64,000 bases of DNA, from positions 155,372,001 to 155,436,000 of the forward strand of contig JBITNC010000001.1 in assembly GCA_050084985.1 (NCBI GenBank), in the 5' to 3' direction. Positions 29,401 through 62,504 of the stretch are shown piece after piece. How positions within the stretch are numbered: the first letter of the stretch is position 1; every line of letters begins with the position of its first letter. Both the position numbers and the translations under genes were made by a program. This DNA comes from Nageia nagi. Taxonomy: Eukaryota > Plantae > Pinophyta. The notes under the pieces were generated by a model. The model was not told the DNA's origin, did not search any database, and saw nothing but the letters and a program-made list of their open reading frames with translations.

Positions 29401-29997
29401 CTTCTCGAGGAAGGAGTCGAAATCCGAGAACTCAAGTCCCAAATCCTAGCACACCTCAAGAAGCTGGATGGTTACCTCCCTAACGTCACCCATCTGCAGC
29501 AGGTTTTCGTTGACAAACCCGAAAAGTTGGTCTACTGCCACGTGTTTATGTATCAACACGATTGGCTAAAACATGCACTTGAGAAGTGCAACGCCGTTTT
29601 GAAGGTGAGAATCCCCTTGAGAAAGGAAGTTGAGGAGCAAATGAGCAGATATGTATACCATCTCAGATTCCAGAGGGATGATAACAGCATACCGAGAAAT
29701 GAGGCAGCATTGGCAGAGGCCCAAAATTTGATCCAAGAGCATCTAGACGTCAAGGATGTCAATTTGTTAAAGGCAGGGCATCCCATCGTCCATGAAAGAC
29801 AAATGGTCATTTGGAGATATCAGATGCAGGCTATGTCCAAGCAGATTGGGGACTATTTTGGGCAAAACAGCAGCATCGTTGGTATGATCTCTAGGGGAAT
29901 GCGGAAAACCACGACGTTCTTGGAGGAGATCATTGAGTCGTATGGTCTTACCAGCGAGGAGTGGAACTCCACCGATACCAGATCAGATCTGGCCTAG
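26451..29997 (+). pseudogene. LTR-borne accessory gene, family B (~1,180 codons)
   Basis: MTSKV...VGD.D...MDFSP...FYMNSYL.YLLL...YPKWW...WEYSIYKDI...LPRYASDRLILMEFAR; D/E-rich middle; coiled-coil C-terminus; stops and frameshifts. Confidence 0.85.
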
Positions 29998-30848
29998 GTC
30001 TGATCCACTCACAAATTCTGTCTGCAATAATCTTTCTTTTGTTTAATGCATATTTAATGGTGGTGGTTTTTGTTACACTCGGACTTTATTTGCCTTAATT
30101 GGTGTAGGAATGAGGTTTTGCTCCTGCTAGATCAGATATGTCAAACTCATTAATGATTCTGACCGATGCAGGGATGAAGTTTTGCTCCCACCGGTTCAGA
30201 ATCTAAACATTTATTGCATATTTGATTTTATTTTGCATAGGTTAATGATAGATTAAATGCATTTTGGTTGTGGCATTTATATTTGTCAGCTTTTAAGTGC
30301 CACTTGCATCGTTTTCTATAAACAATCTAATCTTGTATCGGTATGAGTGTTGCGTATGTGCATGCCATATCAGATTTGATGCCTTTAGGGTAACACTTCT
30401 AGTGGCCTATTTATACCCCATTAAGGCCATTTAGAAGGGGATTTTGCATAATGTTGATTGCATGAGACTATTGCATCTGCTAAAACTAAGGATTTTTGGC
30501 ATATGATTGCATGTACGAGATTTTCTGCATATTGTTGAATTGCATAAGGATTTGCTACATAAGGGATTCTTTGCATATCATGGATACATATTGTTGTATC
30601 TCTGTTTCATTTTGAATATCATATGGAGACTATTGCAATCAAGAAAGGAATGCCTCTATTCATGCTATGGAATATAATTGTGAGTTTATTTCTTTCTGGA
30701 ATATTGCTGCAAAGTTAATACTATGAAGATTATCATTTGTGGGACCATGCATATTGCTTTGGTGTTTGAATAGTTTTCCTCTTAAAAGTGCATATTGAAT
30801 ATTTGTTGAAGTAGTTTAAGTTGTTCATTGCATGGTTTGCATGCAAGT

Positions 30849-32023
30849 AAATTGGAGGTAGCCGATTTCTTCTACCATACCTGCTCGTGTAGAAAGGCCA
30901 ATTGCCTCATCATCTCCATTAATAGCATCCTGTTACTCACGAACCTTGGCAATTGATAAGGCTGGACAGCTGATCCATGTATACGAATATAGGAATAGTG
31001 TTGGTGATGGAGGAAGAAATCCCCATGCTTCTTCAAAGCATCTTGGGCTGAATCGGAGATCCTAGCAACCATGACCTCTCCCTTAAGTTCTTTGTATATT
31101 TCATACTCCCATCCATCATTTTTCATTACAAAACTATCCCATCTCCTTTCCAACTTCCATTTGGGGTAGCACTTCCAAATGGGGTATGTCCCCTTTTCTA
31201 TCCAAGCCGTCTCACCCTGAGCTATAGCTCTATACTTGTCATGAAGCCACATGTACACAAGATATGAATTGAGATAGAATTTACGAGTGGTACCTAAGGA
31301 CAACAACTAATCAGCTATGGAGTCACTCAACACCTTGCTCCACCTAATCCTTCTCCCTCTGGCGATCTCTAGGATGAACCCAAAGAACTCTTTCCTAAAC
31401 TTTGAGGCAGCTTCCTTCCAAAGGATTCTGGACAACAAAAGAATCATCAATTCCACTGCAGGATAGAAGTTGGAGCGAGGAGCATTGATAAGTGCATTTC
31501 CCTTCAATCCGTGATGCTCCTCCAACATCCAGCTCTTGATAGCTATGGTTGCCCTGGGGGTCTCCTAGTAACAAGCTAATGATCTAGCCTCGCTATACTC
31601 GACTTCTCCTTCATAGGTCTACTGAAATGTCGATTTGATGGCGTCCACGCTGAAGTCCATTATGATGTCTCCTTTGATACCTCGAAGGACTCTCTCCTCT
31701 TTTTGCCAATGATGGCCAACCTCCATACACACTTCAGGAAATGGAGTTGTGAATGGGACTAATGTGCAAGTGGAGAGTCTGGAGAAGAAGACGATATCCT
31801 GCTTCAAGTCAATGATAGGAAGACCATGAGTGCTCTCCCTCATCTATGTAGGGTCAATGTTTTGCCAATCAGTATCTCCAATGGTTGAAAAACTGTTTCT
31901 CGAGAATTTAGCCCCTTGGAGAAGGGCTTGTTGTCTCTCACGAATGGAGATGACACAATCCTGTTTCAACCGCTCGAGATCCCTAGCGAAGTTCGAAGCC
32001 AAATTACCCTTAGAAGAAGTCAT
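30849..32023 (-). pseudogene. N-terminal ~390 codons of the family A accessory gene
   Basis: MTSSKGNLASNFARDLERLK...IGDTDW...KFYLNSYLVY...LPRFVSNRMLLMEMMRQL; in-frame stops only. Confidence 0.85.
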
Positions 32024-33657
32024 AATGTTCTCATTGGCAATGTGGCTCCTCAAGAGTGTTGCGTGGGTTTCCAGGTGAAGATGACACCCACGTTGGAGGG
32101 TCTTGCCTCCCAAGTGCTTGCGCAAGCCTTAAGGTGGATAAATGATTATGTTTGAGCACAAAAATATTTGCTACTATCTTGGCGCAAGAGTAGAAGAGGA
32201 GCAAATTTTGAGTTTAAAAAAATGAGGTCCTCAAGCTTGTATATATAGCCCATTTGGCTTCCAATTTGCCCTAGTCAACTAGGGTAACTGACATAACTCA
32301 TCATAACCCTCCACCTAGCCGACCTCGAGATGTGTGTCGCCCAAAACTCATACAAAGTTGCCTATGCCCAAATGTTTGGGTTTTAATGCTCAACCTGGCT
32401 TGGCGCATGGAAAAAAAAAGACAAAAAAGTGACTTTTCGAACCATGCGCCAGCCCTGGGAGCTTGCATGCTTCCAACGTTGGGTGTCCTACCTTCATGTT
32501 TGCTTGCCTTGATCGCCTAACTCACCCGATGACCTGATTTTTCCTTAATCCTGGTCTTCTAGTCTATTGGACTTGTCAATTTTGGCGTTTCATCTCAATC
32601 CGAACAACCTGTGGGCTTGGCGCATGCTTCCAAAAGTCAAGTTTGTGACTTTTTGAGGCATGAGCCAGTCTTGCCTATCCATCCAGCCTGGTCGCATAGT
32701 TTTTGTCTTTTTGAAGCATGCGCCAGCCTCTAGTTGGCCTATTTTTCGAAATCTAACTTTCAAGTGCTCATGCCTTAACCAAATTTTCATATATCTCGAA
32801 TCTTTGAGGTTCCCCAGGCTTGGCGCATGTCTCAAAAAGTCAAGATTTTGTCTTTTGAGACCATGCGCAAGCCCCTCTGGGTATACTTGAGTTAATTTTG
32901 AGTTTTCCGAGTCCAAAACTTGTCAAATTTTCACCTTTGCTCAAACTGACAGCCTTCCTAGGCTTGGCGCATGGTTCAAAAAGACATGATTTTGTCTTTT
33001 TGAAGCATGCACCAACCTCTTGGGTGGCTCATGTTCATTTTCCAACCCCCGAACTTGCTCAATTTGCCTTTTTGACCAAATTGCATGATTCAAAAAGACA
33101 AGATTTTGTCTTTTCAAACCATGCGCCAGCCCTATAGTGCCTTTGACTTAGATTTTTCATGTTCACTTTTGCTCCATTCCGCTCCCTATGTTTGGCGCAT
33201 GCCCAGGAAAGACAAGATTTTGTCTCTAGGAGGCATGCACTAGGCTTGCAAGTGCCCAAATTCCGTCTTTGACCCTTTCCTTCTGTTTAGACGACCCCCA
33301 AGCCCAATCGCATGGTTCACAAAGACAAGTTTTTGTCTTTTGAAACCACACACCAACCCTTGGAGAGGCCCAATTTGCTTTGATCAGGCTACGACTCTTC
33401 CTAAACTCCCTAGTTCACCTAAGATCATCTTAAATCCTTCCTAGACTTAGCCATTTTTAGAGATTTTGAAATTCCTATCTTGACATGACTAACCCTAGAC
33501 GAAGGAAGAGGCTTGAACTGTAAGGAGTTGTCCATGAATCTGGGTCTTTGAGATGCAACTTGGGTGGGATTGATGATGAGAAAACAAAGTATATACATTG
33601 ACGCATTGAGGGTCCCCAAAATCGCAGGATTTTGGGGGATGTGTTTTAGTCACAACA
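30849..33657 (-). mobile_element. Giant LTR family A, copy A2 (5' part only)
   Basis: Minus-strand start TGTTGTGACTAAAAC; 8 palindromes at 32400-33360; colinear with A1. Confidence 0.85.
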
Positions 33658-35080: not shown

Positions 35081-35185
35081 CTGGTAATCCAGACTCAGCT
35101 TCCCATGCACTGCTAGTGCACATCGTGTAACAAGTTCCTCAGCCAGATTCATCATTGTCTGATAATCAGTGTATGCCTCGTATAC
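35081..35185 (-). CDS. OVA5: LysRS exon VYEAYTDYQTMMNLAEELVTRCALAVHGKLSLDYQ
   Basis: Y.AY.DY..MM motif; ctgtag and gttagc splice sites; 105 bp; 161-bp intron to previous exon. Confidence 0.95.
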
Positions 35186-35316: not shown

Positions 35317-35463
<147 letters not shown>

Positions 35464-41299: not shown

Positions 41300-43161
41300 C
41301 TTATGAGAGTGAATTTTCATTTTGAAACTATCAAAGAAACAAATTAAGATGAAAATTACAAAAAGTAAATTACAAAAGAGATATCATCCTTTGCCAATCT
41401 TACCAGGAAATGCTTCTCCCACAATTTGAGATTTGCAAGGTAACTTATTAGTTCTTGCTAACAGCCAATATGATGCATGAAAATAGAAGCTGCAAAGAGC
41501 CTTACTTTTGGCTCAATGGGATTTGGTACAAATCCCCAAAGTCCAACTGCTAACAGCAAAATCACTCAAACATGCCGTAGGAGAGGGACATTTGACTCCA
41601 AGCTCCGGATCTCACCAACAATACTCAAAATTATGCAATTAACCCAAGGTCTAGCTAAGAGTGAGAAATGTGCAATATCAAACCCTCAATAATGAAATAT
41701 GACCAACGTCCAATTTGGAGAGCAATAATATCACAAATAACAATTAATAATCATCCACAAAGCCAACGTCTGAAATAATGATGCCAATTACTCACAATAA
41801 TGCCAAATTATGCTAGAGATCCCCAGTCTAGGTATGGTGAGCTAGAACATGAATTAACAACACAATATGCACTCCAAATCCAACGTCCAAGCAAGATGAG
41901 AGAATTGACAAGAATATAGCAATATAATGTAATTGTATTTGAATAGGAAATGTAGTGAACAATTACAAAGATAATGCTATGAAGACTGATGCACCAAGGC
42001 TCAGATCCGCAGTGTGGCAAGGCTTGCACCAGGGCTTCCTCCTCCAACAATTGTGGTGGAATCTCAGAGATCAACTACCAGTGTTTTATTAATCCGAGGG
42101 TGATGCCAACACCCCTCAAATAGCTAACTAACAACTTGGTTTGCACCAACCCCTAAGTGTGTGCCCACGTAAGTCCTGTACTACAACCCGCTATAGGTAC
42201 CTCACTCTGAAGAAAAGAATTTGGAAGAGCAACAATCAAACCAAGAGTAACAAATAATAATAATAATAATAATCGCATGCTTTTGGTCTTCCAAGAATCC
42301 TCATTATATATAGAGAGGTAGCTCATCTTCTAATCTTGCGTTAAGGTTGATCCAACGGAGTACAAGGGTGATCCGTGTGCTCACATAACCAACATCCAAG
42401 ATGGGGAGTCTTGGGATGGGTCTTGTCACATCCAAGAGCTCCTAATTGCAATGCCTCATGTAAGGGGATTCCCATGCGCATTAGGATCCATAAAATCGTC
42501 ATTAAATCCTCTAAGTGTAACATTGAGCCTTGGGGTTCTCAATGGTGTCTCGAGATGCCAAATAACAATCCAATCCTCTAGGTTTGCCACGTCCAAGCTT
42601 AGGTGTCTTCTTGATGCCTCGTGATGGGTGAAATCACCTTGGTTCATGCATCTACCTCGAAAGGGGAGCAATATTATTAAAGAGGCCCATTAAATGCCAA
42701 TATTAGAATCATCAAGGCTAAATATATGCAACATCCCAAATAAGGTGACTAATATTGCATTTACAGTTAATAATTGCCTTAAAATCATCAAATACAACAT
42801 TATTGGCATTATTACAAATACCACTAATTACAAATATGAAAATACTCCTAATTAAATATAAATCACTCCTAGATAAACTAAATTGCTATTGCTCATCCCT
42901 AGAGGATGAACGTCACTCTCAAATGAGAGTGAATCATGAATTTCCGCACGAGCACGATATGAGCAAATTAGCCCGACGGGTGAACTTCCAAGTGCCATAT
43001 CTCCTTCATTTCTTGATGAATCCTAGTCGTATAAATGTCAAAACGAATGGCATGAGATTTTCTATCCATTCCAAGTGATGAATTTGCAATTCCTGGCTTG
43101 TGGAGGACGAAATCCCTTCAAGCTTGGAAATAAGTTGGAAGCTCAAATTGGGGACATTAAA
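41300..43161 (-). mobile_element. Probable decayed solo LTR (left boundary uncertain)
   Basis: GGGACATTAAA resembles the reverse complement of TGTAATGTCCC; minus-strand TATA near 42306; shares segments with 1-800 and 60430-60510. Confidence 0.45.
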
Positions 43162-44420: not shown

Positions 44421-46809
44421 TTTTATTTGTTACACCACCTGCAATTTACCTCTACCATATACTCTCATGCCTATGGCAAATGGGGTAAAGATCATATTTA
44501 AATAAGAAAAGCTGTAAATGTTGTTTTAAAAGAAAAGGATGACAGAAGTGTAGAGTCAATTGGTGAGCTGCTCATTATGACAGGAACTCACAGGGAATCT
44601 ATCAAATGCCTACCATTAAATAAAACATACAAAATAGCAAGACTCTGGTAAAGGTATTACCAAAAAACATATTCTGCAGGTTACATTGTAGGAGGTCCTC
44701 CCTCACGTTAAAAGGACTGGTAATACATGACCTATTTCTTGATCCATTTTGTGTTCTACTTTCTTTGGTGTATATGAATCTTCTATTATGTTTTGTCTAT
44801 TTTGCTGTATATTGTATATTAGTAGTTAACTTTTATAGTACATTTGCACACGTGCATTTTTGCTGTTAAATTGGATTTTGTTGGAGGATCTGCCTGCCTA
44901 ACAAGGTAAGTTCAACCATGGAAGCCCACACACAATAAGAAGAATTTCATATGGGCAAAAAATATGATACTCTCAGGACCAATCAACAAAAAGAACTATT
45001 TGGAGAGGATTTCTCATCCATGTGGGATATTGCTGTGAGAAATTACGTTCAATAACAGGCAGAAGAAACCCAGCACCCAGCCTAGCTAGCATGGCAAAAC
45101 ATGAAGCAGAATGGGCTCATGGATCTGTTGTGCCTGCACAACACCCCCCAAAATTTTGCATTTTGAGGACCCTCGAAAAATCAAACATCGATGCAAGGAC
45201 GAAGTTTTGTCTAGAGGAATGTATGCATCATGGTTTAGCTAAGAGGAAACATGTTAAATTTGTACGTGCACGATGAAGTTTAGTCAAGAAATTGCATTTT
45301 TCCTTAGGCGCACTGTTATGCTGCATTTTCAGTACTCATACTTGCATTTTTGGCCGTTAAAGTTGCATTTTTGGGTCCCTCATTCTACAAAAGTCATTCC
45401 CCTTTCATTGCATCTTCATTCAGGAATCATTCTAGTGCGACCCAAGAGGTGAACGTCCCATACTAAGGATATTTTTGAAGTCATCCAAATTGTAAGGAAA
45501 AAGAACTAGTTGCATGTTTTAAGGGACATGCTTTTGCATGTCCCCAAAACTGTGCGACCAAGGATTAGAGGTTCTATACTTAGCCAACTTTTGAGCGAAG
45601 TCCCTAAACGATGCACCCAACTTCGAAAAACAAAATTCGGCTAAGTGTTGGGCCCGAACGTTGACAAGTGTGACTACATGCATTTGACCCCCTCTTGCAC
45701 CAATCACAAGGCAATACCTATCCCATCCGAGAAGGTTATAAAAGGGTGTGTTGTGCAGGAGATGCAGCATTCTGAGGACCCAATTTTTTGCAATGGCAAT
45801 GAGCAACATTGCCTGGGCATGATCAACTTACAGCCATTATGGAGACCCAAAATGGCTAGATGATCAAAGTAGCAAACGAGTATGCCTCGGAGTCATGAAA
45901 AGAGTTTGGGTCAGCCAGTGGCCAAGTTAGGGCCCGCTTTCAAGCGACACCTCACAAGATGGAGTTGTGGATCACGACAACAACCAAACAGTGGAGTTTT
46001 GAACGAATGGCCATTAGGGCAAAAAAGGTGTCGTTTTGGCAAATTTGAGCAACAAAGGTGCTAAAGAGACAAAAGGTGCATTTTGGTCAAGTTTGAGACC
46101 GGGAGCAGTAGATACAGTTAAGATGACGAAAATGCATGTTTTTGTACAAATTGAGCCCGGAAAGGGTATCTACAGCCAAAAAGCGTGTTTTAGTCAAATT
46201 TGAGCCCAAAGAGCCAAAAAATGGTCAATAGCACGAAAAAGCGCGTTTTGGTGAATTTTGAGCCCAAAAGTGGTCAATGTAGTAAAAATGTACGTTTTTG
46301 CACAGTTTGAGCCCGGAAGGCTCAGAAATGACCAAAATTGCAAATTTGAGGTCAAAGTGCTCGGAAATGCCCGAAAATGCCGAAAATGGTCGTTTTGGCA
46401 CATCTTGAGTTCGAAAAGGCTGGAAATGTAGATTTTGAGCTCGAAATGCCGAAAATGATCGTTTTTTCACCGTTCAAGCTTGGAAATGTCTGGAAATGCC
46501 GAAAATGGTTGAAATGCATACTTAGAGCCTGAAAACACCGAAAATGGCCGGAAGTGCACCATTTGGGCCTGTAAAAGACGGGAAAGGTCGAGGATGTGCA
46601 ATATAGCCCAGAATGAATGAGAAAAGCAAGTTTGGGCACCCTTGAGGGCTAAAATAAAAAAATGAGCGTTTTGGCATCTGAAAAGCTTCAGGTTGAGCCT
46701 AAAAAAGTGAGTTTTTTTCAAAGTACTCGGAATGAAAATCCAAGAGAAAGGTGTGGGGCCAAATGACAAATTAAGGCCACTCTACTCTTGGAAATATCGA
46801 ATAAACTCG

Positions 46810-48000
46810 AGTTTTAACCCCTCAAAAAGTTAGGGGGGAGTTTTGCAAGTTTTCCCTCACTTAGTCTAATTTCAAAAAATGGCCTATTCTCTTCAAAACA
46901 TGCGCCTACCTTTTGGGAGGCCCAGATTGATCCAAAATGGCAATTTTTGAGCTCAAGAGCGTGGAGATCACGATTCTACATCAAATCGGTCTTTCAAGTT
47001 CGCGATTTCGACGAGTTTTGCTCCACCGAAAGTGAGAAAAATGGAAAATGAGAAAAAGGTCAGCCAATAGGAATGCTCCAAATTTTTCAAAATTTCAAAA
47101 ATGTCAAAATGAAAATCTAATGAAGAGGTAGGGTGCCAAATCCAATTTTAGGCACTTTCCCTCTTAGAATTTTTGAAAAATATCAAAAAATGCCCCTCAA
47201 AAAGCTAGGCACTGGTTTTCCCTTTTTTCCCTCAACTTCTCCAATTTTGAAAATGGCCTAAAACCTGCACCTACCCTTCTTGTGCCCCAAAATTGCTAAA
47301 AATTGAAAATTTTGATCTTCATGGGGTATAGAATGAGATTTCACACAAGATTGATGATTTGAGTTTTCCAAAAAAATGAAATCTACTTCCTCAAATCATC
47401 AAAATTCGATTGACCAATGAGAGAGTTCCAAAATTTCCAAAATTGGCCAAATCAAAAAGAGAGAATGAGGTAGGGTGCAAAATTCAAAAGAAATTAACAT
47501 TGCCTCTTGCAATGTTGCAAAAAAATCAACTTTTTCCCCTCAAAAACCTAGGCGGCAGTTTTGCCTCTTTTCCCCCATTTTCCAATTTTTCCAAAACATG
47601 CCAAAACCCTCAAAACCAGCACCTAGCTTTCAAGGCCTCATTTTTGCTTAAAAATTAAAAAAAAATTGTTCCTAGGAGCATGGGAAATCCAATTTTGCAC
47701 ATCATTCATGTTTTAAGCTTTTTGAAAGAAGTGGATCTACTCCTTCAAAATGACAAAATTTTAATCAGCCAATGGGAGAGTTTGAAAATTTTCGGAGTTT
47801 TTCAAAATTCTCAAAATCAAAATTGGAAAGAAAGGTAGGGTGTCAAATTCCAAGGAGATCAACATTGCCTCTTGTAATGTTGCAAAAAAATCAAGTTTAG
47901 CCCCTCAAAAAGTTAGGCGGCAGTTTTGGGAGTTTTCCATCATTTGCTCAAAATTCTAAACATGCCTAAAACTCCTAAAACCTGCATCTAGCCTCCTTGA
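46810..48000. repeat. Degenerate ~345-375-bp tandem repeat, 3.5-4 units
   Basis: CCCTCAAAAAG.TAGG at ~46819, 47194, 47538, 47902, each followed by AAAAC..GC.CCTA. Confidence 0.75.
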
Positions 48001-49293
48001 CCCCTAAAATTGTTCAAAATTGCAATTTTGTGCCTCTATGAGATAGGTGGCGTGATTTTACACCATGTTGATCCATCATTTGTGCAATTTGGCCCACACA
48101 AACTCCCAAAAACCATCTTATTGCATTCAAAAAGGATTCAAGGGCTGAAAACTCAAGAAATTTGGATAATTTTGCAAAAAAAATCTCAAAATTTGAAATC
48201 CAAATCTGAAGTATGGAGGTTGAAGAGCATCCAAAGGCCATCATCTTTGCTTCCAAGACCCCCCACATTGCACCAAATCTGTTCCTTCCACACTTAGGCG
48301 CAGGTTTTGGCTTATTTCCCATGTTTGGTCATTTTTCCCAACGTTGGCAAGGAGGAGGAAAGGTCCAAAATGCAAGGTTTTGCTCTAGGGTTGATGAAAG
48401 GTTGACATTTGGCACCTTTTGACCCCTTGAGCCTATAAATACAGCCATACCCTTCCATTTTTCACCACTCTCATTTTTGCACCCTTATGGTGCCCAAATT
48501 GTTGAAAATTTGAGAGCAAAGTGAAAAAGAAAGCCGACATTCAGCCTTGGAGGATATTTTTGAAGACTTGACACCATTTCCATTCACCCAAACTCCATTA
48601 AAATTCAAAATCCAAACATCCTCTATTTACATGAACTCCTTTTTTTCAAGTTTTGAGGATTTTTACACCAAAACCCCATTTTCCTAAGCCTCAAACACTT
48701 GAAAATCTATTTTTCCAGATTTCAAGTTTGATCATTTTTTTGGATACCCTCTATCCATGTGATCAACTTTTATTTTCAGCAAAAAAAAAAAAAAAATTAT
48801 GTATCATCCAAGATCTGAGTGACCAAAATCCTCAATTATTGACAAAAAAATCCAAAAAAATTCCAAAAACTCCAAAAATTGTTTTTGAAGTCTGTTTTGG
48901 CCGTTTCAAAGTCTAAAAAACCTTCCCCACTCATTCTCCATCCATCTAGGATTGTAAAACTTGATTTCGGCACCATTTGCCAATTTTGCCAAATTTCACC
49001 ACTTTTTCTTGTTGAAAAGGTCAACTTTTTTGAGAAAAAATTGAAAATTCTCCAAACGTCTTAATTTTTTTGCTAAGGCATCCCTCTTTGAGCTAGTTAC
49101 CTTTGTGTCATCCCTAACTCACCCAAAAGGATTTGAAAATTGCAAATTCTGACACTTTAAGATGATGGCATACTTCGAGTGAAAAATGCCAAAAAATACA
49201 AATTTTTCAAAAACCCCTCATTGTTTGCCCAGTAAGTGCTATAAGCTTCCCAGGACTCTTCTAACTCTTGTTGTTCTCTTAGACAGGGACACA

Positions 49294-52200
49294 ATGGCAT
49301 TAGTTGCTCAAAACATCAAAAACAGGAAGCAGAGAAGGCTCACGATGGATAGTCTCATCACGCTCGAACACACAACAGAGCCAGTGATGCCTACCGCAAG
49401 AATCATTGACAAGCTGAGTGAGATCGGGGACACAGATTGTAACTCCCTCGATCCAATAAAAACTCTAATGAAAATACAAGCATTGGATCCAACTTCATTA
49501 GTAAAGGACACTTGGAAAACCTCCTTACTAGTAACAGCTTCTATGGTGCCATTCACCACTCCCTTCCCTAAGACGTGCTATGAGCTAGGAAAGCATTGTG
49601 ACATCAGAAAGAGGAGACTCCTCAATAGAAGGAACGAAGTAATCATGGACTTCTCTAAGGAAGGAATAGAAAACGCGTTCACTTGGAAAAGCGAAGGCCT
49701 ATCATACAGTGTACAGGACTCCTTGAGGTTCTACAAAAGTCTAAAACCTCCAGCTGATTTGATCAGAGATTGGTTGATCGATGACCGCAAGCATCTCACA
49801 GGAAGAGCCTTAGCAACACCAAACAGAGGAGAGTTCTATCTAGTAGTCTCTAGACTAATATCAATGTTTTCCAAAGTGACCAAACAGAAAGATGACACCA
49901 AATTACGGTCGGAATTCGCAAGGTTTTTATAGAGCTGATCAGCAGTGGTGAAGGCATAAGGTAGAGCAAAGTAATTAGTGATTCCTTGGCTCAACAACTG
50001 AAAAACATCCAGAGGAGCAAGAAATTCTATATGAACTCCTACTTGGTTTACCTACTCCTTCACAATAGGGAGAGGGTAACCTCAATCGCCAATACACAGT
50101 ATCTTTATGACCCCACACATCCAATGTCACATCCAATGTGGGAAAACTACCCACGATTCTTTGCTCATAACAAATGGAACAATGGAAACTGGAAGATGAT
50201 GACCGATGGTTTTGAAGGCAAAATCTACGAAGAGATCATGGGCAGAGCCAATGTACTCAGAATATCCAATGAGGTTGTTGCCGCTATCAAGGGACATGTA
50301 GACTTCTTTGCAGAAGACATAGAGTTCACCTACCTCAGGGTCTATGGCTCCAAAGAAGCCCCTTATAAGCTACCCCGTTACGCAAGTGATCGCATCATTC
50401 TCATGGAATTTTCAAGGCACTTGCTAAATGTACACGACCACTTACCAATTACCTATCGTCATCGGGAATTATGAATGCACCACCTGGTGACAAATTGACA
50501 TGATTAAACAAGAGCTGGCGTTGTATGAATTCCCGACCAAAGTAGCTGCGAATCAGTATGATCCCAATGGAGTGATTGATGCAAGGTTCCATTGGAGTGC
50601 ACTTTGGGATTTCTCGGAGGCGCTCCAGCCGCTCCAGCGAATCCGAAGGACCGCCGAAGCAGCCGGCCTCTCTCGGAGCACTAAAACAATTGCACATGAT
50701 TTTAAAAAAAAAAAGAGTCAAAATTTAAAATAAAAAACATAGTTGGATACTTGATAATTATGGTTTTGCTATTTTGGGCCTTTGGAATTTTGCTACTACG
50801 ACATTATGACTCATTTTGATATTATGACATTATGTACTACACTGATTCAAACTTGTTTGTAATTTAATGACATTATGGCTTGTTTTGATTTCTCATTTTT
50901 ACCTTTCAGATTCATACTTGATTCATATTATGATATCATCATTATGTTTTGTAATTTAAATTCATATTTGATAGTTAAAATGAATTAGAAACAATGAACA
51001 TGAAAAAATTTTAAAATCCTAAGGATTTTCTACTAGCCGCTCCACCTACCAAATTGGAGCCGCTCCCAAAAAATGACCCTCTGCTGCTCCACTGCTCCTG
51101 ACTCACCGTAGAACCTTGGATTGATGCATTTTTCAGAAGACATGGAACTCATCATATCCACACCAATCCCTTGGTAGCATTCAAAAGTACAGGAACATTC
51201 AAGACACCTTACCTTGCAAGTTCAATAGATTCACAACGAACTGAAAAAAGAACAAAAACAATACAAAGCTGAAGAAGCTGCCAGGTTAAGAGCCAATGCA
51301 CAGGTCATCGCACCCCCGAGCCATGGGTATGTTATTCCCATAAGATCCCCTTCAATAAGCCTAGCTCAAGGACAGAACGGGCAATATGCTACCAATAGCA
51401 TCCCCGAACAAACCATTGAAACAACTATCACAGGTACGACGAATGAAAACCTGGACCTCAGAAGAGCAGGCTTGATCTCTCAACCATTCAAACACTTGCA
51501 GAAAAAGATAAATCTCCCGCAAGATTTGAATCAAAGTGGTATGCGCTTGAATCAAAACCCTAGCACATCATCATCCAGTTCTGACAAATATGGACCAAGT
51601 GGCTCATCAAAGTCTGATGAAGAGATGGATCTTAGTGCACTCAACACTGACATGGAGATAAACCAAGATATTGCCTTTGATAGGGTCGACACCGATCATT
51701 CAGTAGAGATCCTTAATGAAGGCAATCCCTCAATTGATATGATTGTACAACAAGCAGCAGAAGCAGGCACCCCAAAATCCGCTCCTCGAAAACAAGCATC
51801 ACAAATGCCACCATCTCAGAGGACTAAGACATCAGCATAGAAGGGTACTTCAAGACCCAAGACAATGGTATCATCTTCAAGGGGAGATGATGGAAATGAA
51901 GAGGATGAGGGAGAAAAAGAAGACAAGTACAGCATGACATCGAGATCATCGAAAACGGAGAGATGGTTCCCTATGGAAAACAACCCATGGAACCCCGTTT
52001 CAACATGGTTGCAGTGATGGCTAATTTGAGTTCAAATCACCCCTGCGAAGGAGAGGATTGGGAAGATGAAAATGAGGAACTTCATCAGATTGATACTTTC
52101 ACCACCATTGTAGGAAAAGTCACCGACAAGGACAAGCTCTAATTAAGGAAAAACAAGGCTAGTACCGAAAAGTTTGCCCTCACCGTCAAGATAGAAGAGA

Positions 52201-53069
52201 CCCCTACAGAGATTGTTGGCCCATTGGGAATGGAGCATAGCATCATCACAAATGCACAGGCATTGAGGGAATCCGGTACCTTATTAAAGTTAGAGATTAG
52301 GGAGCTGAAGAAGAAAGTGGCAAGATAGGAAATGATTGACAAAGAAGTCATAGCTGCTAATTTGACAATTGAAGACATCAAAAAGCAGTTCGACTTAAGT
52401 ACTGGAATCACCGCTTTGAAACAAGGATGGACCAAGGACCTTATTAAGGCTATCAAAACACTCCACTCAAGCATGGTAAATTTTTATATTAAGGAGAAGG
52501 GGTCGCATTCTCTGGCAGAGAAAATAGACCAATTGATCATCAGATGTAAGGATAGGTACCCTACAATGTTCAACCTACAGAGAAGGGCAACCCATTATCC
52601 TTTCATGCTAGATTTTTGCATAGATTGGTTCCAGTTGTATGATTATTTGTTCTATATCAAAACCAAGTCCACCGACTTCATATACACCAGAACTCAACTC
52701 AAAGCCATCGTTAGTTAACAGGCAAGGGAATACGAATTCCAAGTACCCTTGTTTGAGGAAAACGACAACATTAAAGAGTATATTGCAATAATGACAATGA
52801 TCCACACCACTATTGCAGAGCAGTTGTGTCCCAAGGATCCACACAGCCTAAAGACAGGAAGACAAATGACAAGAGGGATGAGATTGGCCAATTGGTGCAA
52901 GGAAATGATCAAAACCAATAAGGCCATCTTGGAGCACCTGTTATCAAACGAAGGAGCCCTCCAGACAATCAATAGCGCCATCAAGAACGTAGAAGCGTTC
53001 ATGGAAAATGACATTGAAGCCAAAATCACCACAAACGTGCAAGTCATCTTCCCACAATCGCCAGAATAG
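49294..53069 (+). pseudogene. LTR-borne accessory gene, family C (~1,075 codons), interrupted by hAT MITE
   Basis: IGDTDC..LDP...PFTTPFP...IMDFS...KFYMNSYLVYLLLH...YLRVYG...PYKLPRYASDRIILMEFSR...YDPNG; coiled-coil C-terminus. Confidence 0.85.
50582..51118. mobile_element. hAT-type MITE, 537 bp
   Basis: TIRs CAAGGTTC/GAACCTTG; perfect 8-bp TSD GATTGATG (50574-50581 and 51119-51126); subterminal CCGCTCC repeats. Confidence 0.92.
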
Positions 53070-55288
53070 AAAGGGGTCTATTTTCGCAAGTTTTTGATAT
53101 GTAAGCCAAATATTTGGCCAACTTAGTGGATTTCCACTAAGTCCAATTGTAATTTTGATTAGCATTTTCAATTAGCTTGTAAATAGTTGTTAGTGTTACA
53201 ATTAGGGTTAGGGTTTTGAAACTCATTTCTAGGGTTTCAAAAGACACTTTTAGGGTTTCCAAAACTTTATAAGAGACCAGGAGTCTCATTTTTGTAAGGA
53301 CTTCATTATGAAGCAAACATTTCTTTTCTTGAAGAGTGAACTTTTGAGAATTGAGAGCTTATTGTAAATCTTGGCACCTCCTTTTTCAAAATATAATACA
53401 AAGTTGTTAATGCAAAGACTTGAGTTTGACACTTTTCTTATTGATGTTATGGATTGATTCTTTGAGGGCACTCATAGTTGGCTTGTGTACTTTCGTTTCA
53501 TTCCTTTGAAAGCTTTTGAGCTTTAAGGAAGTTATCTCTGAAAAACTTTAAAAAGTGCTTGAAGCTTACCTATGTTTGTTGCTTGATCCTTAACACACAA
53601 GTTGATTGGGTATTCTATGTCAGTTTCTACTTCCATGACATCTTGCTAGGTCCTTCATTCAAAACTATGATCCTCTCATTTTGCGACCTTCCATTTCCAT
53701 TATATTGAATCGGTCCTATTTGTAGAGAACCGACAATTGGCGTTCCTCCCCGCTCCTCTTTGAAGCAATTCAAATGCTGAGTTGTTTGCTTGCAAGGTTG
53801 GATGAATTGGATGAAGGGTCCTTAACCGATTCGGAAAAGATTAACTCTTAGACACTTTCCCGTCAGTGAACCTCAAACTCATACCCAACCAAGTATCCTT
53901 TCTTTCTCCAAGGTGTTGTCCTTCACCTTTTACAGTATTACTTTTATGCTTTCTCTATGCTTTTTTTATGCTACCATACCCAAATACAATCCTTAAATCC
54001 ACTCAAAAAGGTTTTGAACAAACTCTATACATCAAAGAATAAAACATCGTTGGTTAACAAGCTACTACCTGTCATTCCATTCTATTGAAGCTGTTTTCAA
54101 AGAGGGATACCACACTTTCTTTATCTATCCTTAGACCAGGAACAAGCTCGGCAGGCACACCTTGAACGTAGTAACATTAGGTCGACGAGTAAGTGTTTCA
54201 ACAAGAGCCTTGGAGGTACACAATCCTTTTCAAACGGGGGAATTGGTAACGCATTCCCACCTATGTTGCTTGGGATCTCTTAAGTTTCGCATGCGATATT
54301 CAGAGTGTCCCATGCGGGAAAGAAAAGCATCCCAACAAGAAGGTTAGCCTCGGTTAATCAGTTTGGAAGGTTAAGTCTGGAGCACTGCATGGAGTAAAGG
54401 AGAAAAAGCACAACCCCTAAAACGTGCGCCCTATTCCAAATTGCATTTTTTTAGTCATTTTCATCATTTTTTTGGAAATTTCTACCTGGGGAGGTGTGCT
54501 AAAGGCCAATCGCACCATTTTTAGTACATGCTTGGCACTCCCCCAAAACCATGCGCCTAGTCCCAAACATCTTGGCCCAGGGGTAAAATTGACTAAGTGT
54601 TGAAATTCAAGAAGGGCGGGCCAGGCACAAGCTTTAAGGCGCATGCTTTTGCACCCATTCCAAAGGGTGTGACAAGGAAATAGAGCTTCAAAGTGGCATG
54701 AAAATTGACTAAGTCCCTTCTCCTTAGTCATTTTCATTGCTTCATTTCAGATTTGCACCCAAATTCCTAGTCACAACATTTCAGGGACATGCTTAATCAC
54801 TCATTCAAATCGGTGCACCAGGGAGGAATAAGGAGTTAGGATTTTGTTGGTACAACCAGTTAGCCATTTTGGGCTAAGACATTTCATTTGAGCCCTAGAA
54901 ACTGAGGCGCATGTTTTCCAGTACATGCTTTTCCACTCATCCAAAGTGACCTAGGACCCAATCGCATGTTTCCTAGACAGTGAAAAAACACTCATCTCAA
55001 ACCATGCACCCTAGGGTTACAAGCTGAAATTGAGTAAGCGTGAGATGCCAAGAGTTGAGAAGAGAAAGAGATGAGTGGCAGGCATGCATTTTGCCATACA
55101 TCCACCTTCCATGCATCTCATATAAAAAGGGCAGCCTTGATTCATTTTGTTGGACGTCCTGCAGCCCAAACCTACACGTTTGACCTCTTCTTGTTGCATC
55201 CTCCAGGGTGTCTGGATTGATCCTTGGGCTTTTATGAGGGCCTCCAACCATTTTCATTCCTTTTTCTGCATTTACTTCAGAATTCAAT

Positions 55289-58189
55289 ATGACTTCAAAA
55301 GTGAGGCTGCCCCCACTCAAGGCCAAGAAAGTTCAAGGGCAGCTATTTGAAAGACGTGACTAAGGACCAGATGACAAGGCTCTTGAAAGAGAGCCAAATA
55401 GAGTTTCAAGAAAGGGAAAGACCAGAGCTCCTTGAAGCCAAATTCAAGGGGAGATACGTCTTTGTTGGAGATACAGACTGAGGAAATGTCGACCCCATCC
55501 AGACCATAGCCTCCACTACCTCCATTAGCAAGGAGGACCTGTCAAATGAACTCATCCACACCTGTGGATTGTTCAATGCCACCATGATGCCTTTTGCAAT
55601 TCCTTTTCCTTAATTGTGCTACGAGGTAGCCAAGAGATGTAAATATGACAAGAGAGTCCTCCAAGACACAGAGAGGAATGTAATTATGGACTTCTCCCCC
55701 AAGGGAGTTGAAGCAGCCTTTGGCTGGAAAAGATACGAGGATGATTATACATTGACAAATTCATAAGAGTTCCATGATTCCACTACCTGGCTTGGGGACG
55801 ACATCTGATCATGGCTTTATGAGGATTATCAGAATATTCAGGGCCAAAGATTGGTCAGCAGCGTAGGAAGGAATTCCTTCCTACAGTGGCCAAGTTGATC
55901 ACTTTGTTGTCCAAAGTCACAAGTCAAGAGAATGACTCTAAGTACAGGAAGTAGTTCACAGGATTCATTGCAGTAATCAGCTACGGGAGAGCTATGAGAT
56001 GGAGTAGGGTGATCAGCAATGCCCTGCACCACCAACTGGCTTTGGTTCCTCGAGGAGGTTCTATATGAACTCCTACCTTGTGTACCTGTTGTTGCATGGC
56101 AAGCTCAAATCCAGAGAGCTTGCGGATAAGAGATACTTGGGTCAAAAAGGCATTTCTGTGTGGTGGGTATACCCGAAGTGGTGGTATCACAAGAAATTTC
56201 AGCATTTCTATGAGAGGAACGATCGATGGGAATACTCCATCTATAAAGACATATAAGATGAATCAATCGTGAAGAGGATTTCTGAATGCTACCATCCAGG
56301 CCATTAGTGCACATACAGATTTCTATCTGCAATATATTAATCATACATTCATCAAGGTCTATGGCTCCGACGAGCAACCCCTACTGCCCAGATATGCTAG
56401 CAACAGACTCATTCTCATGGAATTTGCTAGATAGTTGTTGTTTTTGAAGGAACAAGTATGGAGAAAGAAGAATGCAACCATTAACTTGCCCATCTCTATT
56501 GCAAGTTATGTTTGCCATACGTGGGTTGAGGCCAGCAATATGAAGTTGCAGCAGTACGTCTTCTTCAAGGAGGCAGCAACTAGAAATTATAATCCAAGAG
56601 GTGTAATTGCTCATTTCTACAACACCGCATTCCAAAAACAGATAACTTTTCAGCATAAATCTTTAGGGAAAGCGGAGAAGTACCAAAATGTGCAGAGTAA
56701 GGAGGAAATTGCATAGATAGATGCTCTTTTGAGCAAGAAGAAGACCCCCCTCCATGAAAAAAGACCACCTCAAAGACCACACACTATCAAGGCAAGATCT
56801 AAAGAGGTCCCACTCAGGATCAAGACATCCCCTCCTGCCAGTGTTGAACCTCCACAAGGTAGAGTGCCCTTGCTTCTTGTCGGGAAGAGACAAGGAGCTC
56901 CAAGAGAGCACATCCCAGGACCTAGCAAACGCAATGTAGTGATGGCCTATTTGAGAGATGTTGGCTATCGCACTGGTCCCTTGAGCATGCTGGAGAAGGC
57001 TTGTGCCAATGATTTACCCACATAAGACTTTCCTTCTAGACCCACTCATCCTCCTGGATGTGCAAAGAAGGTTTCCCCACTGCAACCAAGTTCCAGTTCT
57101 TTCGAGCATTCCACTTCTTCCGATGAAGAAATTGGTGAGGAACTCGGCCATACAGTAGAAGACTTCGAGGAAGAGACAGAGAGCCAGAGGAGTGATGAAG
57201 AGAGTCGTGGTGAAGAAGAAGAAGAAGATGATGATAATGATGATGTCGTTGATGAGTAGTACCCGAACAAGACAATGTATTTGTGTGTGCTTCCGCACCT
57301 GATGAGATAGAGATTGAAACTCTCCCAGATGATGATGAGATTGTGGACGTTGGGACTTATGATGATGATGAGGTCCAAGTTGTTGGAGTAAAGTGTGTCA
57401 GAGAGGTGGGTACCTCTAAACATTCTCCTGTCGAGCATAGAAACAACTCACACTCGTCTTCCTAGAAGCCCTCTGTGAAGAGGACCAACCATGAAAGATC
57501 CCCTTAGCCACGGAACAAAGGCATATCAATAGGTGGTGACGAAGGAGATGAATAAGACAAAGGGGAGATTCAAGAGCAGAAGAAGAAGAGAAAGCAAGAT
57601 GAACACCAAGGTAAGGAAGTAGCCCTTGTTCAGACTACTCTGGCTGAAGAGGTCAAGAAGGTTAGACGAGGTCGATTGTTGGTGCAAAGGCTTCCTCCCT
57701 AGCTAGCAACCGAACATCCGGACCTTGACTTGCATGCCTGCCTTAGAGCTCTCAGCATGAGTACGGCTCATGATGAGGAGATAGACCAAGACCTGCATTC
57801 TGAGGATGAAGAAGAGGAGCTCTCTGATGGTGAGAAGATTACAAGAGTTGACACATTTGTTTCCACCTCTCGGAAAGACATCTCCATCAACCATTGCTAT
57901 TCAAAGGAAAAGCATCCTCAGAGGGCAGAAGACTGTGCTAGCAGGAAAATCATCAAGGAGTTCCAAAATATCAACACCACTCCTCTTGATCTGAAGAAGC
58001 AAGCCTCCTTCCATGGAGTTGATGAAGGATCAGCTGAAGAAGGAGATGATGGAGACCATTGAGAAGTTATGTTCTCAAATTTACAAGCTCCTCGAAGGTA
58101 GTGTTGAAATTTGGGAGCTACAAGCCCAAATCACAGCTCATCTTGACAAGTTGGATAGCTACCTCCCCAACGTCTCCCACCTGCAGCAT
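55289..58189 (+). pseudogene. LTR-borne accessory gene, family B, second copy (internal deletion near 57937, 3'-truncated)
   Basis: Nucleotide-colinear with 26451-29500; TATAAAA at 55121. Confidence 0.85.
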
Positions 58190-58542: not shown

Positions 58543-58697
58543 TTACTGACACAGGCTCATACCCAATGGACAATGCATGTACTATGCATCCACACTGTTT
58601 AGGTTTGTCTTAGGTTTTCAAGTTGACTTGTGTCAACCATTTTGTTGTTTTTTTTTAGCTTGCGTCGCTATTTTTATTGTTGTTTTGTTTTAGCTAT

Positions 58698-61600
58698 TAT
58701 TGTGACAAGCACAACAGTCCCCAAAATCCTGCAATTTTGGGGACCCTTTGCACTTTTTGCTCTAAGCGATGCCACGCCTATCTTGGAGCTTCAACCACTT
58801 GGTTATCACATCCATCATTCTTCACCTAAGTGTCACAACTTTCTCAATCTTAGCCATGTTAGACGAAGCTCAAAATTTCAAAAAATGACTAAGTCTGGAA
58901 TCAAGAAATTGAGTCTAGGTGAAATAAGGGAATCCAGGTCAAGTTCAACCTAGAGCAAAGTGAAGGGCAACCCTCCAGCAAGCTAGCACACATCTCAAAA
59001 AGACAAGTTTTTGTCTTTCTATGGCGAGCGCCCAGATGCAAGAGCCACCCAGGTCGAGATGAAGCATAAGTGGAGCAAACTGAGGCATTCTAAAGCCCAA
59101 CGTATGTCTCCAAAACACAAGTTTTGGTCTTTTTCCAACATGCGGCCGACTAGGAAGAGGAGAAAATCTAAGTGTTGAGGCAAAGAGGCCAATCTAGCTC
59201 TCCCAGAGACACAGCGCAAGGTTCAAAAAGACAAGATTTTGTCTTTCTGCGGCATGCACCCAGATCAGGAGGTCGCCCGAGACAAGGTTGAGATCGAACA
59301 AGCAAAATTGGAGCACCTTGGGGCCGAGCGCACCTCTCAAAAAGACAATATTTTGTCTTTTTGTGGCATGCACCTAGGACAGAAGGCCACCCAAATCGAG
59401 CTTGAGGAAAATTTTGACTAAGGCATGAGCTTTCAAGATCAGCATCCGACATAGAAAGGTCCAAGAGGGAAGGCACATGATTCCAAAAGCCAAGATTTTG
59501 ACTTTTGGTGGCATGCGCCTAGCCAAGTGTAAGGATCCAAAACACAACTCAAGTGCAATTAAACCAAAATACACAAGTATGCACCCAACATCTAGTTTAG
59601 AAGGGCAATTACAAGCATACAAACCCTCACAATGCCAACATCTGGCTTAATCATGCACGAATAAGTAAACAAACCACAAGGTTGCAATAGCAAAGCATAC
59701 ACAAGATAAATATGGCAATCCAATACCCAATGGCTATATATAAGATAAATGATGCTCAACAATATGATACCAAGCCCAACAGGGCTGACGTTGACCTCAA
59801 AGGAGCCAACTAGGGCAAACCGTGTATCCTCAATGTTGGAGGAACAAGTAAAACCATGGGATAGCCTCGCTCCTTCAGAACCTGAATCCTCTCCACCGAA
59901 GGAGCCCTCCTCTAATCCTGGTGACCAACTGAATGGTAGAAGCTCAACCTCGGAATACCACCGAATGGGCAAGGGTGCTACACCAATGTCATAGAGGATC
60001 AGGATACCTCAGCCTGATAGCCCTCCTAGATGCTACACCTAGGGAATTGCTTAGCGCCACTAAGACTGGTGTCCACAAGACAGTATTAATGAGATAATAG
60101 CATATTCGGGTGTATCCAACAATGAGGCTCCAATGCCTCTTTATACACTCAACTTTGTCTGGATCTCACCTAGGAGTCATCACATGACTCCTTAATCCCA
60201 ATATTAGCCTCCTGGGGGCCCAAAATACCCAACGTGGGTACCTAGGGGTCAAGCATGACACATGGGGGCTTGGAGTGCCATAAATGCCAACATGGGGGTC
60301 TAGGAGTGCCACGCATGCCCAACGTGGGTCTAGGAGCCATGCGTGGGGTCTAGGTGTCATAATGGGCCAACGTGGGGCTTTAGGAGTCTCCCCAAGGCTG
60401 GCACATGTATAGAAGTGCTCATCCATCCATCTAAGTGTAAAACAGACCTTGGGATTCCCACAATCAAGATCGAGATCTCCAAGTATAATAAAACACCTAT
60501 TTTATGTTTGGGAGGGAGACGTTCTGCTTGGGGCTCACAATGGGGTCCATTGACCCATTAAGTCTTCTATCCTAAGTTACAACATGAAAGTACAATGCAA
60601 TAATAAAATATATTACAAAAGGAATATATCGGATTCCACAATTAATTACAATCATGCAAGGAGGGTGTCACACCAAGGGAGAGCCCGATTAGAAGAGAAT
60701 GGTTCAATTTGGCCAAGCACTGCTCATAAAGGTCCCAAAACTAGCGAAATTGGACAAGAGGAAGCCAACGCATGATTTAATAAAACAAATTCTTGACTTT
60801 CTGGAGCATGCGCTCAAGCTGGGATGACGAGCAGGATAGGTGCACCAGAAAAAAGACCCAATCTTGACTTTTGGTAGCATGTGCCCAACCTAGAAGGAGG
60901 TCTAGGTGGCTTCGAAGGTGAAAAATGGCCAAGTAATGAGAATAAAAGCCCAAAATCATGTCAAATCGGGAAAAGGAAGGCTAGCGCATGCCTCCAAAAG
61001 ACAAAAATGTGAATTTTTTTTTTGCAAGCACCCAAACTAGGGAGACTGGCAAGCTAGGTGCATAGAAAAAAGACAATCTTAACTTTTTATGGCAAGCTCC
61101 AAGTTTAGGTAAGCAAAACAAATCTGTTGCATCCGAAAAAAGACAATATTGTGACCTTTTATGGTATGTTCCAAGCTTGGAGAGGCACGCGCCCAAGAAG
61201 GCCAGATTTCAAGGACAAGTTCCCAGGTCATCCCAATGATACATGCAGGCTACTATATCACCCTCACAGATGCCAAAAGGTGAACAGGTCAAGCTAGGGA
61301 TTACAAAGGCGAAGAAGATCGACAAGTTTGAGTGCACCTGAAGAGCATAGAGGCGTGGTTTTGCAATCGCAAAAAAAATATTTTATTGCAATTTTATTTC
61401 AAATTTGGATTACAAAGATTTTTTAAATTTGGTTCAGCCTTGCGACAGATGAGGATTTGCTCCCACAAATGCTAGAATAAATCTTGTAACGCCATGTGGC
61501 GTATTTTTATTAGACCACTTTTAATTTTCTTGGAATTTGCATTAGGGTTAGGGCAACACTTAGGGTTGCCATGAAAAACTATTTGTATCCCTTGAATGCT

Positions 61601-62504
61601 CATTTGTAGGGGGAATAGAATTTTTGGGATGTGGAATTGAACATTTCCTAATAGATGAGTAGAGTATTTTTTCCTATCAAATAATTGTCTATGGTGAATG
61701 TGGCATGGACTTTAGTTAAAATTGCACAACTCCATTTCTTTGTTACTATGAGCTTGGGCATGCAATGTCATCATTGATGTGTTGCTTAGATGCTTGGGAC
61801 ATTTTACAGAAGAGTGTTGAATGTAATGCATAGTTGATGATTGCCCATGGTATACAACTAGACTTGTATAATTGTGGAGTGTGTTCCCCAATGACGTTTA
61901 ACATGAAAACTTCATCCACCTGTTGAAAGTACCCTCCGTGACACGACCAACTCCCTTGTCCCCTTAAACACTTGCTCCCTCCTCTGGACCATTTGTGTTG
62001 TTGGCTAGTGTGAGAGGATATATCCTACTTTTAGACCATTCATGTTGTTGGCTAGAATGAAAGGATAGGTGGATTCTTGGAACCCATAACAAACCCAAAG
62101 GAACTTGGCATTCAAACATTGTAGTCGTTGGTGGAGCTTGATGCAAGAGAGCTGAACTCTTATGCCTCCAGTCATTTCCAATCTTCCTATTTTTCTTTTA
62201 TTTTTTATTTTCTTTATGCAGCTTTTCACACCCTTTACTTCTTGTACCTGAGAAACAACCCTTGTCTAGGCACTGAGACAATCCGAGTCCTTGACGAACA
62301 AATATTATTTGAGTTGGTGGCAGCTTCAAACATCATAGCCAATCTTTGAGCCTCATTCTCGCACCATCCATTTCGAGAGACCTTTGAGGTAACCAATCCT
62401 TATAACAGATAGGGTTAATGCCCTTCCACCTAAGGTGTTGGTGTCTCTGCTAACCTTGCAGTTATTTGCCTATTCGTAAGGTAGGAAAGAAAAACCATCC
62501 AACA
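58698..62504 (+). mobile_element. Family A-related giant LTR (copy A3), largely ORF-less, preceded by a 3'-UTR-like segment
   Basis: T(A)TTGTGACAAGCACAACA start, A-type palindromes, 61440-61610 nearly matches 15110-15280, end ...GGAAAGAAAAACCATCCAACA matches the A1 end. Confidence 0.75.
59528..60672 (-). mobile_element. Solo LTR, 1,145 bp
   Basis: TGTAAGG...GTGTCACA with perfect 5-bp TSD CCAAG; minus-strand TATAAA near 60140; internal CCAACGTGGG.CTAGG repeats at 60225-60390. Confidence 0.88.

Follow-up and report, generated by a model that had tools for sequence, protein, structure and literature searches.

A 64,000-nucleotide stretch of the genome of the conifer Nageia nagi (assembly GCA_050084985.1, contig JBITNC010000001.1, positions 155,372,001 to 155,436,000 of the forward strand; hereafter the window) contains eight copies of a repeated unit that carries a long open reading frame (ORF), one of which, at 45749-54337, is the main subject of this study. 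We read the unit as a 6-8 kb long terminal repeat (LTR) of a Ty3/gypsy retrotransposon, likely of the TatII clade in gymnosperms, with a selected gene of about 1,100 codons inside it whose predicted product is a PMD/VANC-like DNA-binding protein that likely counters silencing. We put the probability of this reading as a whole at about 0.75.

Layout and ends of the unit

Self-comparison of the window recovered all eight copies of the unit, in three diverged families (A, B and C) and with the ends given in a preliminary description of this DNA. As we read them, the copies are as follows.

980-2040, minus strand: u1, family-B head fragment, clipped
7472-16073, plus strand: u2, family-A solo LTR within gag-pro, ORF at 8964-15021, TG..CA ends
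20270-24168, plus strand: u3, family C, without the ORF, inserted in the integrase, clipped at its 3' end
24513-30848, plus strand: u4, family-B giant LTR in the 3' position, ORF at 26453-29997, clipped
30849-33657, minus strand: u5, family A, head and first 390 codons, clipped
45126-58189, plus strand: u6, family B, host of u7, clipped within the ORF
45749-54337, plus strand: u7, family-C giant LTR, solo insertion within u6
58698-62504, plus strand: u8, family A, without the ORF, likely a former 3' LTR, starts TATTG

Within u7 the following parts were distinguished.

46023-48021, plus strand: U3 repeat arrays, with eight or more 49/58-bp units (46023-46577) and four units of about 350 bp (46712-48021)
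48434-48441, plus strand: TATA-like box 1, upstream of the ORF, predicted promoter of the gene, with counterparts in u2, u4, u5 and u6
49294-53069, plus strand: LTR-borne ORF of about 1,077 codons, broken in u7
50582-51118, no strand assigned: 537-bp insertion in the ORF resembling a miniature inverted-repeat transposable element (MITE), with an 8-bp terminal inverted repeat and an 8-bp target duplication
53266-53290, plus strand: TATA-like box 2 and the initiator-like word TCATTT, predicted start of the genomic RNA at the U3/R border
53291-54337, plus strand: tail, predicted R-U5, ending GAAAAGCATCCCAACA

The layout common to the units is a TGTTG start, family-specific repeat arrays, a TATA-like box, the long ORF, a second TATA-like box, a tail and CAACA. 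The preliminary description had called this order fixed and the arrays inverted repeats. The common layout holds, but only u2 and u7 of the eight copies run from head to tail with the ORF, u3 and u8 being without it and u1, u4, u5 and u6 being clipped. Likewise, arrays of mixed orientation are typical of family A, but those of u7 are direct tandem repeats, and no inverted match was found within u7 at E < 1e-3.

The families have in common about 50 bp of head, the terminal motifs of the tail and the protein. Relatives of the unit were found in metagenome contigs scanned with a family-A alignment, where eight loci of 5-12 kb each (L001 to L008) were confirmed among 364 pattern matches; because a family-A query found them, they are biased to ORF-bearing copies. 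Mean column identity over the ~50 bp of head is 81% in an alignment of seven of the eight window heads with three heads from these loci, from which u7 was omitted as about 14 bp are missing from its head. The terminal tail motifs are common to families A to D, and a fourth family (L008) retains the order of ORF stop, conserved motif, TATA, tail and CAACA. TG...CA ends with a short inverted repeat are seen in u2, u7, u8, L001, L003, L005 and L006.

The unit is very probably an LTR. The head begins at the same TGTTG base, beside unrelated flanks, in eight of the ten copies compared; among the 45 flank pairs of ten heads only u4/u8 is clearly related (z 4.6), with L001/L005 at z 3.0. Integrase joins the ends of LTRs, and an internal region would not form insertion boundaries. 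Since the head is such a boundary, it should be the start of U3.

The copy u7 starts with TGTTG, finishes with CCAACA and measures about 8.04 kb after subtraction of the MITE-like insertion. In the paralogs u1 and u4, which are uninterrupted, the site consists of 5 nt; around u7 it amounts to 10 nt, which corresponds to a 5-bp duplication by length. Similarly, the reading frames on either side of u2, which is about 5.8 kb long after subtraction of its own 2.8-kb insertion, are offset as a 5-bp duplication predicts. Searched for within the unit, the first and last 150 bp of u7, u2 and u8 gave no repeat (scores of 21-32, as against means of 25-28 for shuffled sequence and 59 for the positive control). 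On this evidence each of the three is one unit whose ends are of retroviral type, and none contains a pair of LTRs itself. The earlier claim that 45749-54337 is a solo insertion thus stands, and the five extra bases and the lack of an internal direct repeat fit a solo LTR. An element with short LTRs and an internal ORF, which the preliminary description had named as the refuting case, is ruled out because the head is an insertion boundary and no second head or tail occurs within the complete units.

Because the ORF lies 5' of the second TATA-like box, it would belong to U3 if that box is the start site of the element. The arrangement of this box with TCATTT recurs in u2, u3, u4, u8 and L008. 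Both boxes and the initiator are consensus matches in the sequence and mark predicted starts only.

Loci L005 and L007 match u7 at 78-84%. When 44900-55300 was divided into 30 bins, every bin was covered by contigs from four of four public runs, in thousands of diverged pieces. Arrays, ORF and tail therefore all exist in many copies; contigs neither allow a ranking by depth nor show transcription starts. The unit termini were not among the best 24 of about 2,970 loose-end rows from public-run contigs, and of 22 sequencing runs listed none held half of the query words and none was an RNA run. The 537-bp MITE-like insertion, which we take to be hAT-like, is missing from L005 and L007, and the joint 50583>51129 is present in one contig.

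Two adjacent palindromes, conserved across families, open the heads (first 50 bp, e.g. 45126-45175), and u7 has lost part of the first. Compensatory changes were seen in 0 of 15 pairs, the second helix being partly out of register in this test, so an RNA hairpin at the LTR start is unsupported. The copies u3 (family C) and u8 (family A), which keep arrays and tail yet are without the whole ORF, may be non-autonomous LTR variants or the products of later deletions. The ORF of u2 is itself interrupted at 9667-12494 by a 2.8-kb insertion that has TG..CA ends and is flanked by a perfect duplication of 5 bp (GTGAC); no Pfam match was found in the two longer ORFs of this insertion.

The gag-pol element flanked by family B

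The link between the unit and a retrotransposon is given by the following features.

4854-5371, plus strand: 3' end (last 518 bp) of a giant family-B LTR that takes the 5' place beside gag-pol, with an identity of 82-88% to the L003 and L006 ends
5383-5399, plus strand: site resembling a primer binding site (PBS), 11 nt after the LTR end, unique in the window and the loci at up to three mismatches
5600-24376, plus strand: gag-pol of the host element (gag, protease, aRH-like stretch, reverse transcriptase (RT), RNase H (RH), integrase (INT)), interrupted by u2 and u3
24377-24512, plus strand: 3' untranslated region (UTR), 136 bp, T-rich, with a homologous stretch preceding u8

The integrase stop is at 24374-24376 and u4 starts at 24513, which confirms the earlier statement that this copy begins 136 bp after the stop. 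For the opposite side, two loci provide a bridge: L006 339-4913 matches 26252-30839, then L006 4925-5515 matches 4854-5371, and L003 behaves likewise. Both run from ORF, TATA and tail (homologous to 30420-30848) into a homolog of 4854-5371, with a gap of 2 bp. Because they join a u4 homolog to it, 4854-5371 represents the 3' terminus of the giant unit of family B; and since this end precedes gag and u4 trails the integrase UTR, family B lies on both sides of gag-pol. The preliminary description had proposed a search for the unit in just this position, and for family B it is found there, as two clipped halves linked through L003 and L006. That description had also seen motifs of the tail in an ordinary LTR at 4765-5371. 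The relation of 4854-5371 to the tail is real, but a separate 607-bp LTR family was ruled out when this stretch proved to be the family-B 3' end in L003 and L006; 4765-4853 does not align to the family-B unit, and the TGTTG at 4765 is incidental.

Pfam matches in gag-pol comprise Retrotrans_gag, RVT_1, RT_RNaseH, Integrase_H2C2 and rve, in RT-RH-INT order. The aRH-like stretch (about 17200-17620), between protease and RT, was recognised by eye from motifs over three frames and gave no Pfam or PDB match. The PBS-like site we take to be a complement of tRNA-Asn with two G>A changes, a type that is presumably among those listed for TatII. The element is likely a member of this clade.

With an LTR of about 6,856 bp and an interior of about 6,635 bp, the whole family-B element would be about 20 kb long, two thirds of it LTR. 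As for family A, the flank of u8 is homologous to the UTR before u4 (z 4.6, the best of the 45 flank pairs), which weakly suggests that this family too occupies the 3' LTR position; the link is weaker than that of family B.

The 5' and 3' family-B LTR pieces (4854-30848) are complementary, missing only 2 bp, as in a circularly permuted element. By our estimate, the chance that independent deletions over 6.9 kb would leave such complementary halves is about one in a thousand; they would be explained more simply if a circle with one LTR had been opened a single time and then captured at a break. The T-rich tract ending TTTTAGCTAT is common to two families before the 3' LTR (24377-24512, 58570-58697).

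The LTR-borne gene, its product and its candidate targets

The ORF lies between head and tail in four families. Measured from start to stop and minus nested insertions, it spans about 1,077 codons in u7, 1,182 in u4 and 1,077 in u2, as the preliminary description had held for a gene of about 1,100 codons; its word "entire" did not survive, because no open gene was found among the window copies, all of which are broken. In u7 the frame changes at four or more points and is broken by about 6-7 stops, besides the MITE-like insertion. The length of the ORF is nevertheless real, because in L004 a single frame extends over 971 codons, three stops included. The product has a conserved N-terminal globular domain, which is likely PMD/VANC-like, an acidic or low-complexity linker and a conserved C-terminal domain. 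In comparisons of natural copies covering the N- and C-terminal domains in all three families, dN/dS (the ratio of nonsynonymous to synonymous substitution rates) was 0.07-0.24 in 10 of 13; two of the 13 were saturated, and the linker gave 0.40. Judged by these ratios, well below 1, the gene was under purifying selection and was retained during the divergence of the families.

HMMER found 77 relatives of the ORF protein at E ≤ 0.001, and Taxus chinensis was the only species named among ten of them looked up. A search for longer homologs found none. In a Pfam search of 72 window ORFs, 25 pieces with relatives and 99 alignment rows the LTR ORF stayed below the cut-off, sequence searches of the PDB gave no match, and viral contigs held no relative of the RT or of the ORF. 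The leader of u7 is 850 bp. A pyrimidine tract with AG lies directly before the ORF start in families B and C (49270-49293, 26430-26452, 55265-55289), possibly marking a leader intron.

Two AlphaFold models of the N-terminal part were built from family-A proteins, with mean pLDDT (predicted local distance difference test) scores of 70.2 and 79.3. In exhaustive structural alignment both models placed VANC21 bound to DNA (9lnk) first of 48,161 chains, at Z 5.0 (198 residues aligned, root-mean-square deviation 5.3) and Z 6.3 (240 residues, 5.1); the next rows reached Z 3.7 with at most 94 residues aligned. Three weak signs point the same way: structural homology of VANC to MAIN, a PMD protein, has been reported (PMC13547354), the nearest named Atlas clusters are plant PMD-like (0.76), and a single alignment row of 99 matched Pfam PMD at E 0.023. 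Because Z is under 8, a VANC-like fold is a lead only; judged by the models, it is somewhat probable that the N-terminal domain has a PMD/VANC-type fold. A piece of u7 compared with the Atlas hit unnamed bacterial clusters at 0.87, which we treated as chance.

Each family has its own repeated word in U3, directly upstream of the gene, and these words are the predicted targets of the protein. The word AAAGACAA occurs 6.8 times per kb in family-A heads and not at all in families B and C, and GGACATGC occurs 3.3 times per kb in family B, 0.15 in A and 0 in C. Each VANC protein removes methylation from its own family by way of tandem repeats, and these targets are often specific to one family (PMC5735166). 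A sequence-specific anti-silencing role of the LTR protein is conceivable here, at somewhat less than even odds.

On the observed layout we infer the following scheme of transcription and protein function. Starting from the second TATA-like box of the 5' LTR, the genomic RNA would contain the tail, followed by the PBS, by gag-pol and by a 3' U3 in which the arrays and the gene lie. The gene would thus be present once per genomic RNA, in the 3' U3, and reverse transcription would copy U3 to both ends, giving a full element two whole copies. The first TATA-like box of either LTR would drive a separate mRNA for the PMD/VANC-like protein, which likely would bind the arrays in the same LTR, keep the LTR active and counter host silencing. 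LTRs of 6-8 kb would recombine often, leaving solo cassettes such as u7 and u2. More tentatively still, a gymnosperm lineage may have moved a VANC-like anti-silencing gene, together with co-evolving target arrays, into U3. Each LTR would then be a self-contained module, solo LTRs would scatter modules acting in trans, and plus-strand priming may proceed without a polypurine tract.

Alternatives, related systems and significance

Two other readings deny that the unit as a whole is an LTR. In the ordinary layout of Tat elements the true LTR would be the ~1-kb tail, and head, arrays and ORF would be the internal 3' region, as in Retand or Athila. The arrangement at 4854-30848 alone would fit this layout, no polypurine tract marks the head as an LTR start, and in Retand it is usual for extra ORFs and arrays to separate pol from a short 3' LTR (PMC11963269). 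We consider it quite improbable, because copies with unrelated flanks start at the same TGTTG in eight of ten cases, and because u7 and u2 are single head-to-tail insertions with 5-bp duplications and no second tail. The established action of integrase at LTR ends speaks against it as well. The unit could instead be an element of its own, resembling a DNA transposon whose terminal inverted repeats measure 5 bp, with occasional insertions beside gag-pol; stand-alone copies outnumber gag-pol in the window by 8 to 1, and VANC21, the best fold match, stems from a Mutator-like DNA transposon. Such an element is highly improbable: the terminal match is TGTTG/CAACA only, 5 bp, with no minus-strand self match in u7, Pfam found no transposase family in the ORF, and in one element the family-B tail adjoins the PBS-like site and gag and the head adjoins the integrase UTR, which a second family (u8) has as well.

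The LTR architecture may be right and the protein something else, namely a general transcriptional activator, an accessory factor of RNA or particle, or an env-like protein, and we give this possibility considerable weight, if short of an even chance. The fold match is modest (Z 6.3), the arrays bear no footprint of hypomethylation, and PMD proteins such as MAIN act in silencing, not against it (PMC13547354). Against this, two separately built models gave the same top match, which rose with model quality, the nearest named Atlas clusters are plant PMD-like, and the family-specific arrays lie directly upstream of the gene. As a crude argument against a membrane protein, the fraction of hydrophobic residues in L004 stays at or below 0.50 in every window of 50 residues.

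The reading of a giant LTR with an anti-silencing gene has to be held against a number of findings that weigh against it. The 5-mers flanking u7 (GGGTG, AGAAG) and u2 (CCTAT/CTTGC) have diverged, two of five bases being identical in each pair. The PBS-like site is 11 nt away from the LTR end and its assignment to tRNA-Asn is tentative; no such site follows seven other tail ends (u2, u7, u8, L003-L006). No polypurine tract precedes u4 or u8, where 5-6 of the last 20 nt are purines; most elements, not all, have such a tract (PMC6317226, Neumann 2019). The gag-pol link is established for family B, weak for family A and was not obtained for family C, to which u7 belongs, and no element with two whole LTRs was seen in the window or in the loci of 5-12 kb. 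The text of Ustyantsev 2015 reports no extra ORF in Tat lineage II (PMC4408406). As for the protein, Z for VANC21 falls short of 8, under which the tool warns that a match may be a common arrangement, and sequence identity is 6-8%. Foldseek searches of the pdb and viral sets with both models gave no match at E ≤ 0.001, the Pfam PMD model matched one of 99 alignment rows at E 0.023 and none of ten window pieces, and the plant PMD-like Atlas clusters scored 0.76-0.77, a weak value at the level of a lead. The modelled family-A domain is about 30-40% identical to the u7 domain. The arrays show no retention of CpG (observed/expected ratio 0.38-0.43, compared with 0.32-0.44 in ORFs); CHG retention, as a sign of demethylation, was absent from the arrays too.

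Genes such as sag of mouse mammary tumour virus (MMTV) and lentiviral nef lie in or overlap U3 and are copied to both ends by reverse transcription. The analogy with MMTV sag drawn in the preliminary description is sound for position, but the protein looks like a plant mobile domain/VANC protein instead; those genes belong to animal retroviruses with far shorter ORFs and LTRs and encode unrelated proteins. The element resembles TatII (PMC6317226) in its domain order, with a candidate aRH stretch between protease and RT, in the 5-bp duplication and in having forward extra ORFs, which are counted there both 5' (23%) and 3' (26%) of the polyprotein in 27 REXdb elements. It differs in LTRs of 5.8-8.0 kb and a family-B element of about 20 kb, and the text of that paper, Fig. 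4 and the element table aside, does not place an ORF inside the LTR. The near symmetry of 23% and 26% is what an LTR-borne ORF would give, so the pattern may be latent in those data. The REXdb limits were 6 kb for the LTR and 20 kb for the distance; elements up to 18.1 kb were found and LTRs up to about 5 kb are mentioned (PMC6317226).

Ogre, TatIII and Retand elements (PMC4408406, PMC11963269) likewise belong to Tat and carry a likely PMD-type accessory gene with a helical C-terminal part beside arrays. As described there, those ORFs lie between the LTRs, often in antisense, in one copy per element, and give Pfam PMD or Transposase_28 matches (PMD-coiled coil), whereas the ORF here is in sense, lies inside the LTR, survives solo-LTR formation and stays below Pfam cut-offs. 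VANC of VANDAL (Mutator-like) DNA transposons (PMC5735166, PMC13547354) is the top fold match and is also element-encoded beside tandem repeats that differ between families. VANC, however, is from DNA transposons of dicots, with binding and demethylation demonstrated, whereas here identity is 6-8% at Z 6.3 and function is predicted from a model. Retrosat2/RIRE3, of Tekay type, has LTRs above 3 kb, an extra ORF and many solo LTRs (429, compared with 162 complete elements); its ORF0 is upstream of gag-pol and described apart from the LTR, and its LTRs are about half as long (PMC3485330). No prior description of a full gene inside the LTR of a plant retrotransposon was found in the literature searched, which excluded most subscription journals and Repbase, nor in the text available of PMC13477047, PMC3601003, PMC2806351, PMC6527191, PMC11539532 and PMC11683283.

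Exons resembling a class II lysyl-tRNA synthetase lie on the minus strand at 4221-4436, 35081-35185 and 35350-35442. Because they flank the elements near 4.2-4.4 kb and 35.1-35.4 kb, the repeats lie in very long introns, and one intron of this gene is filled with nested elements over about 29 kb. Another repeat family has pieces at about 59600-60700, 41700-43100 and 1-980, and also in L001, L007 and L008. In L004:1-1907 a family-A tail end occurs twice, inverted and with the same 20-nt flank, which indicates an inverted duplication or an assembly artefact.

If our reading is correct, an element class of several families has been cut off or misread by length limits such as the 6-kb LTR and 20-kb distance of REXdb, and the 23% and 26% figures suggest that the pattern has gone unremarked in existing data. 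A gymnosperm survey took LTR pairs within 15 kb (PMC13477047). Ratios of solo to intact elements, which have been used to argue for slow element removal in conifers, would then be biased. Solo LTRs would be gene cassettes instead of inert remains, and gene numbers in annotated conifer genomes would be too high because of them. With the protein next to its predicted target in several of the diverged families, the unit would be a testable candidate for retrotransposon anti-silencing. If the unit is such a module, solo-LTR formation, the usual way in which the host deletes elements, would spread modules that act in trans on the family. This would bear on how conifer genomes grew so large.

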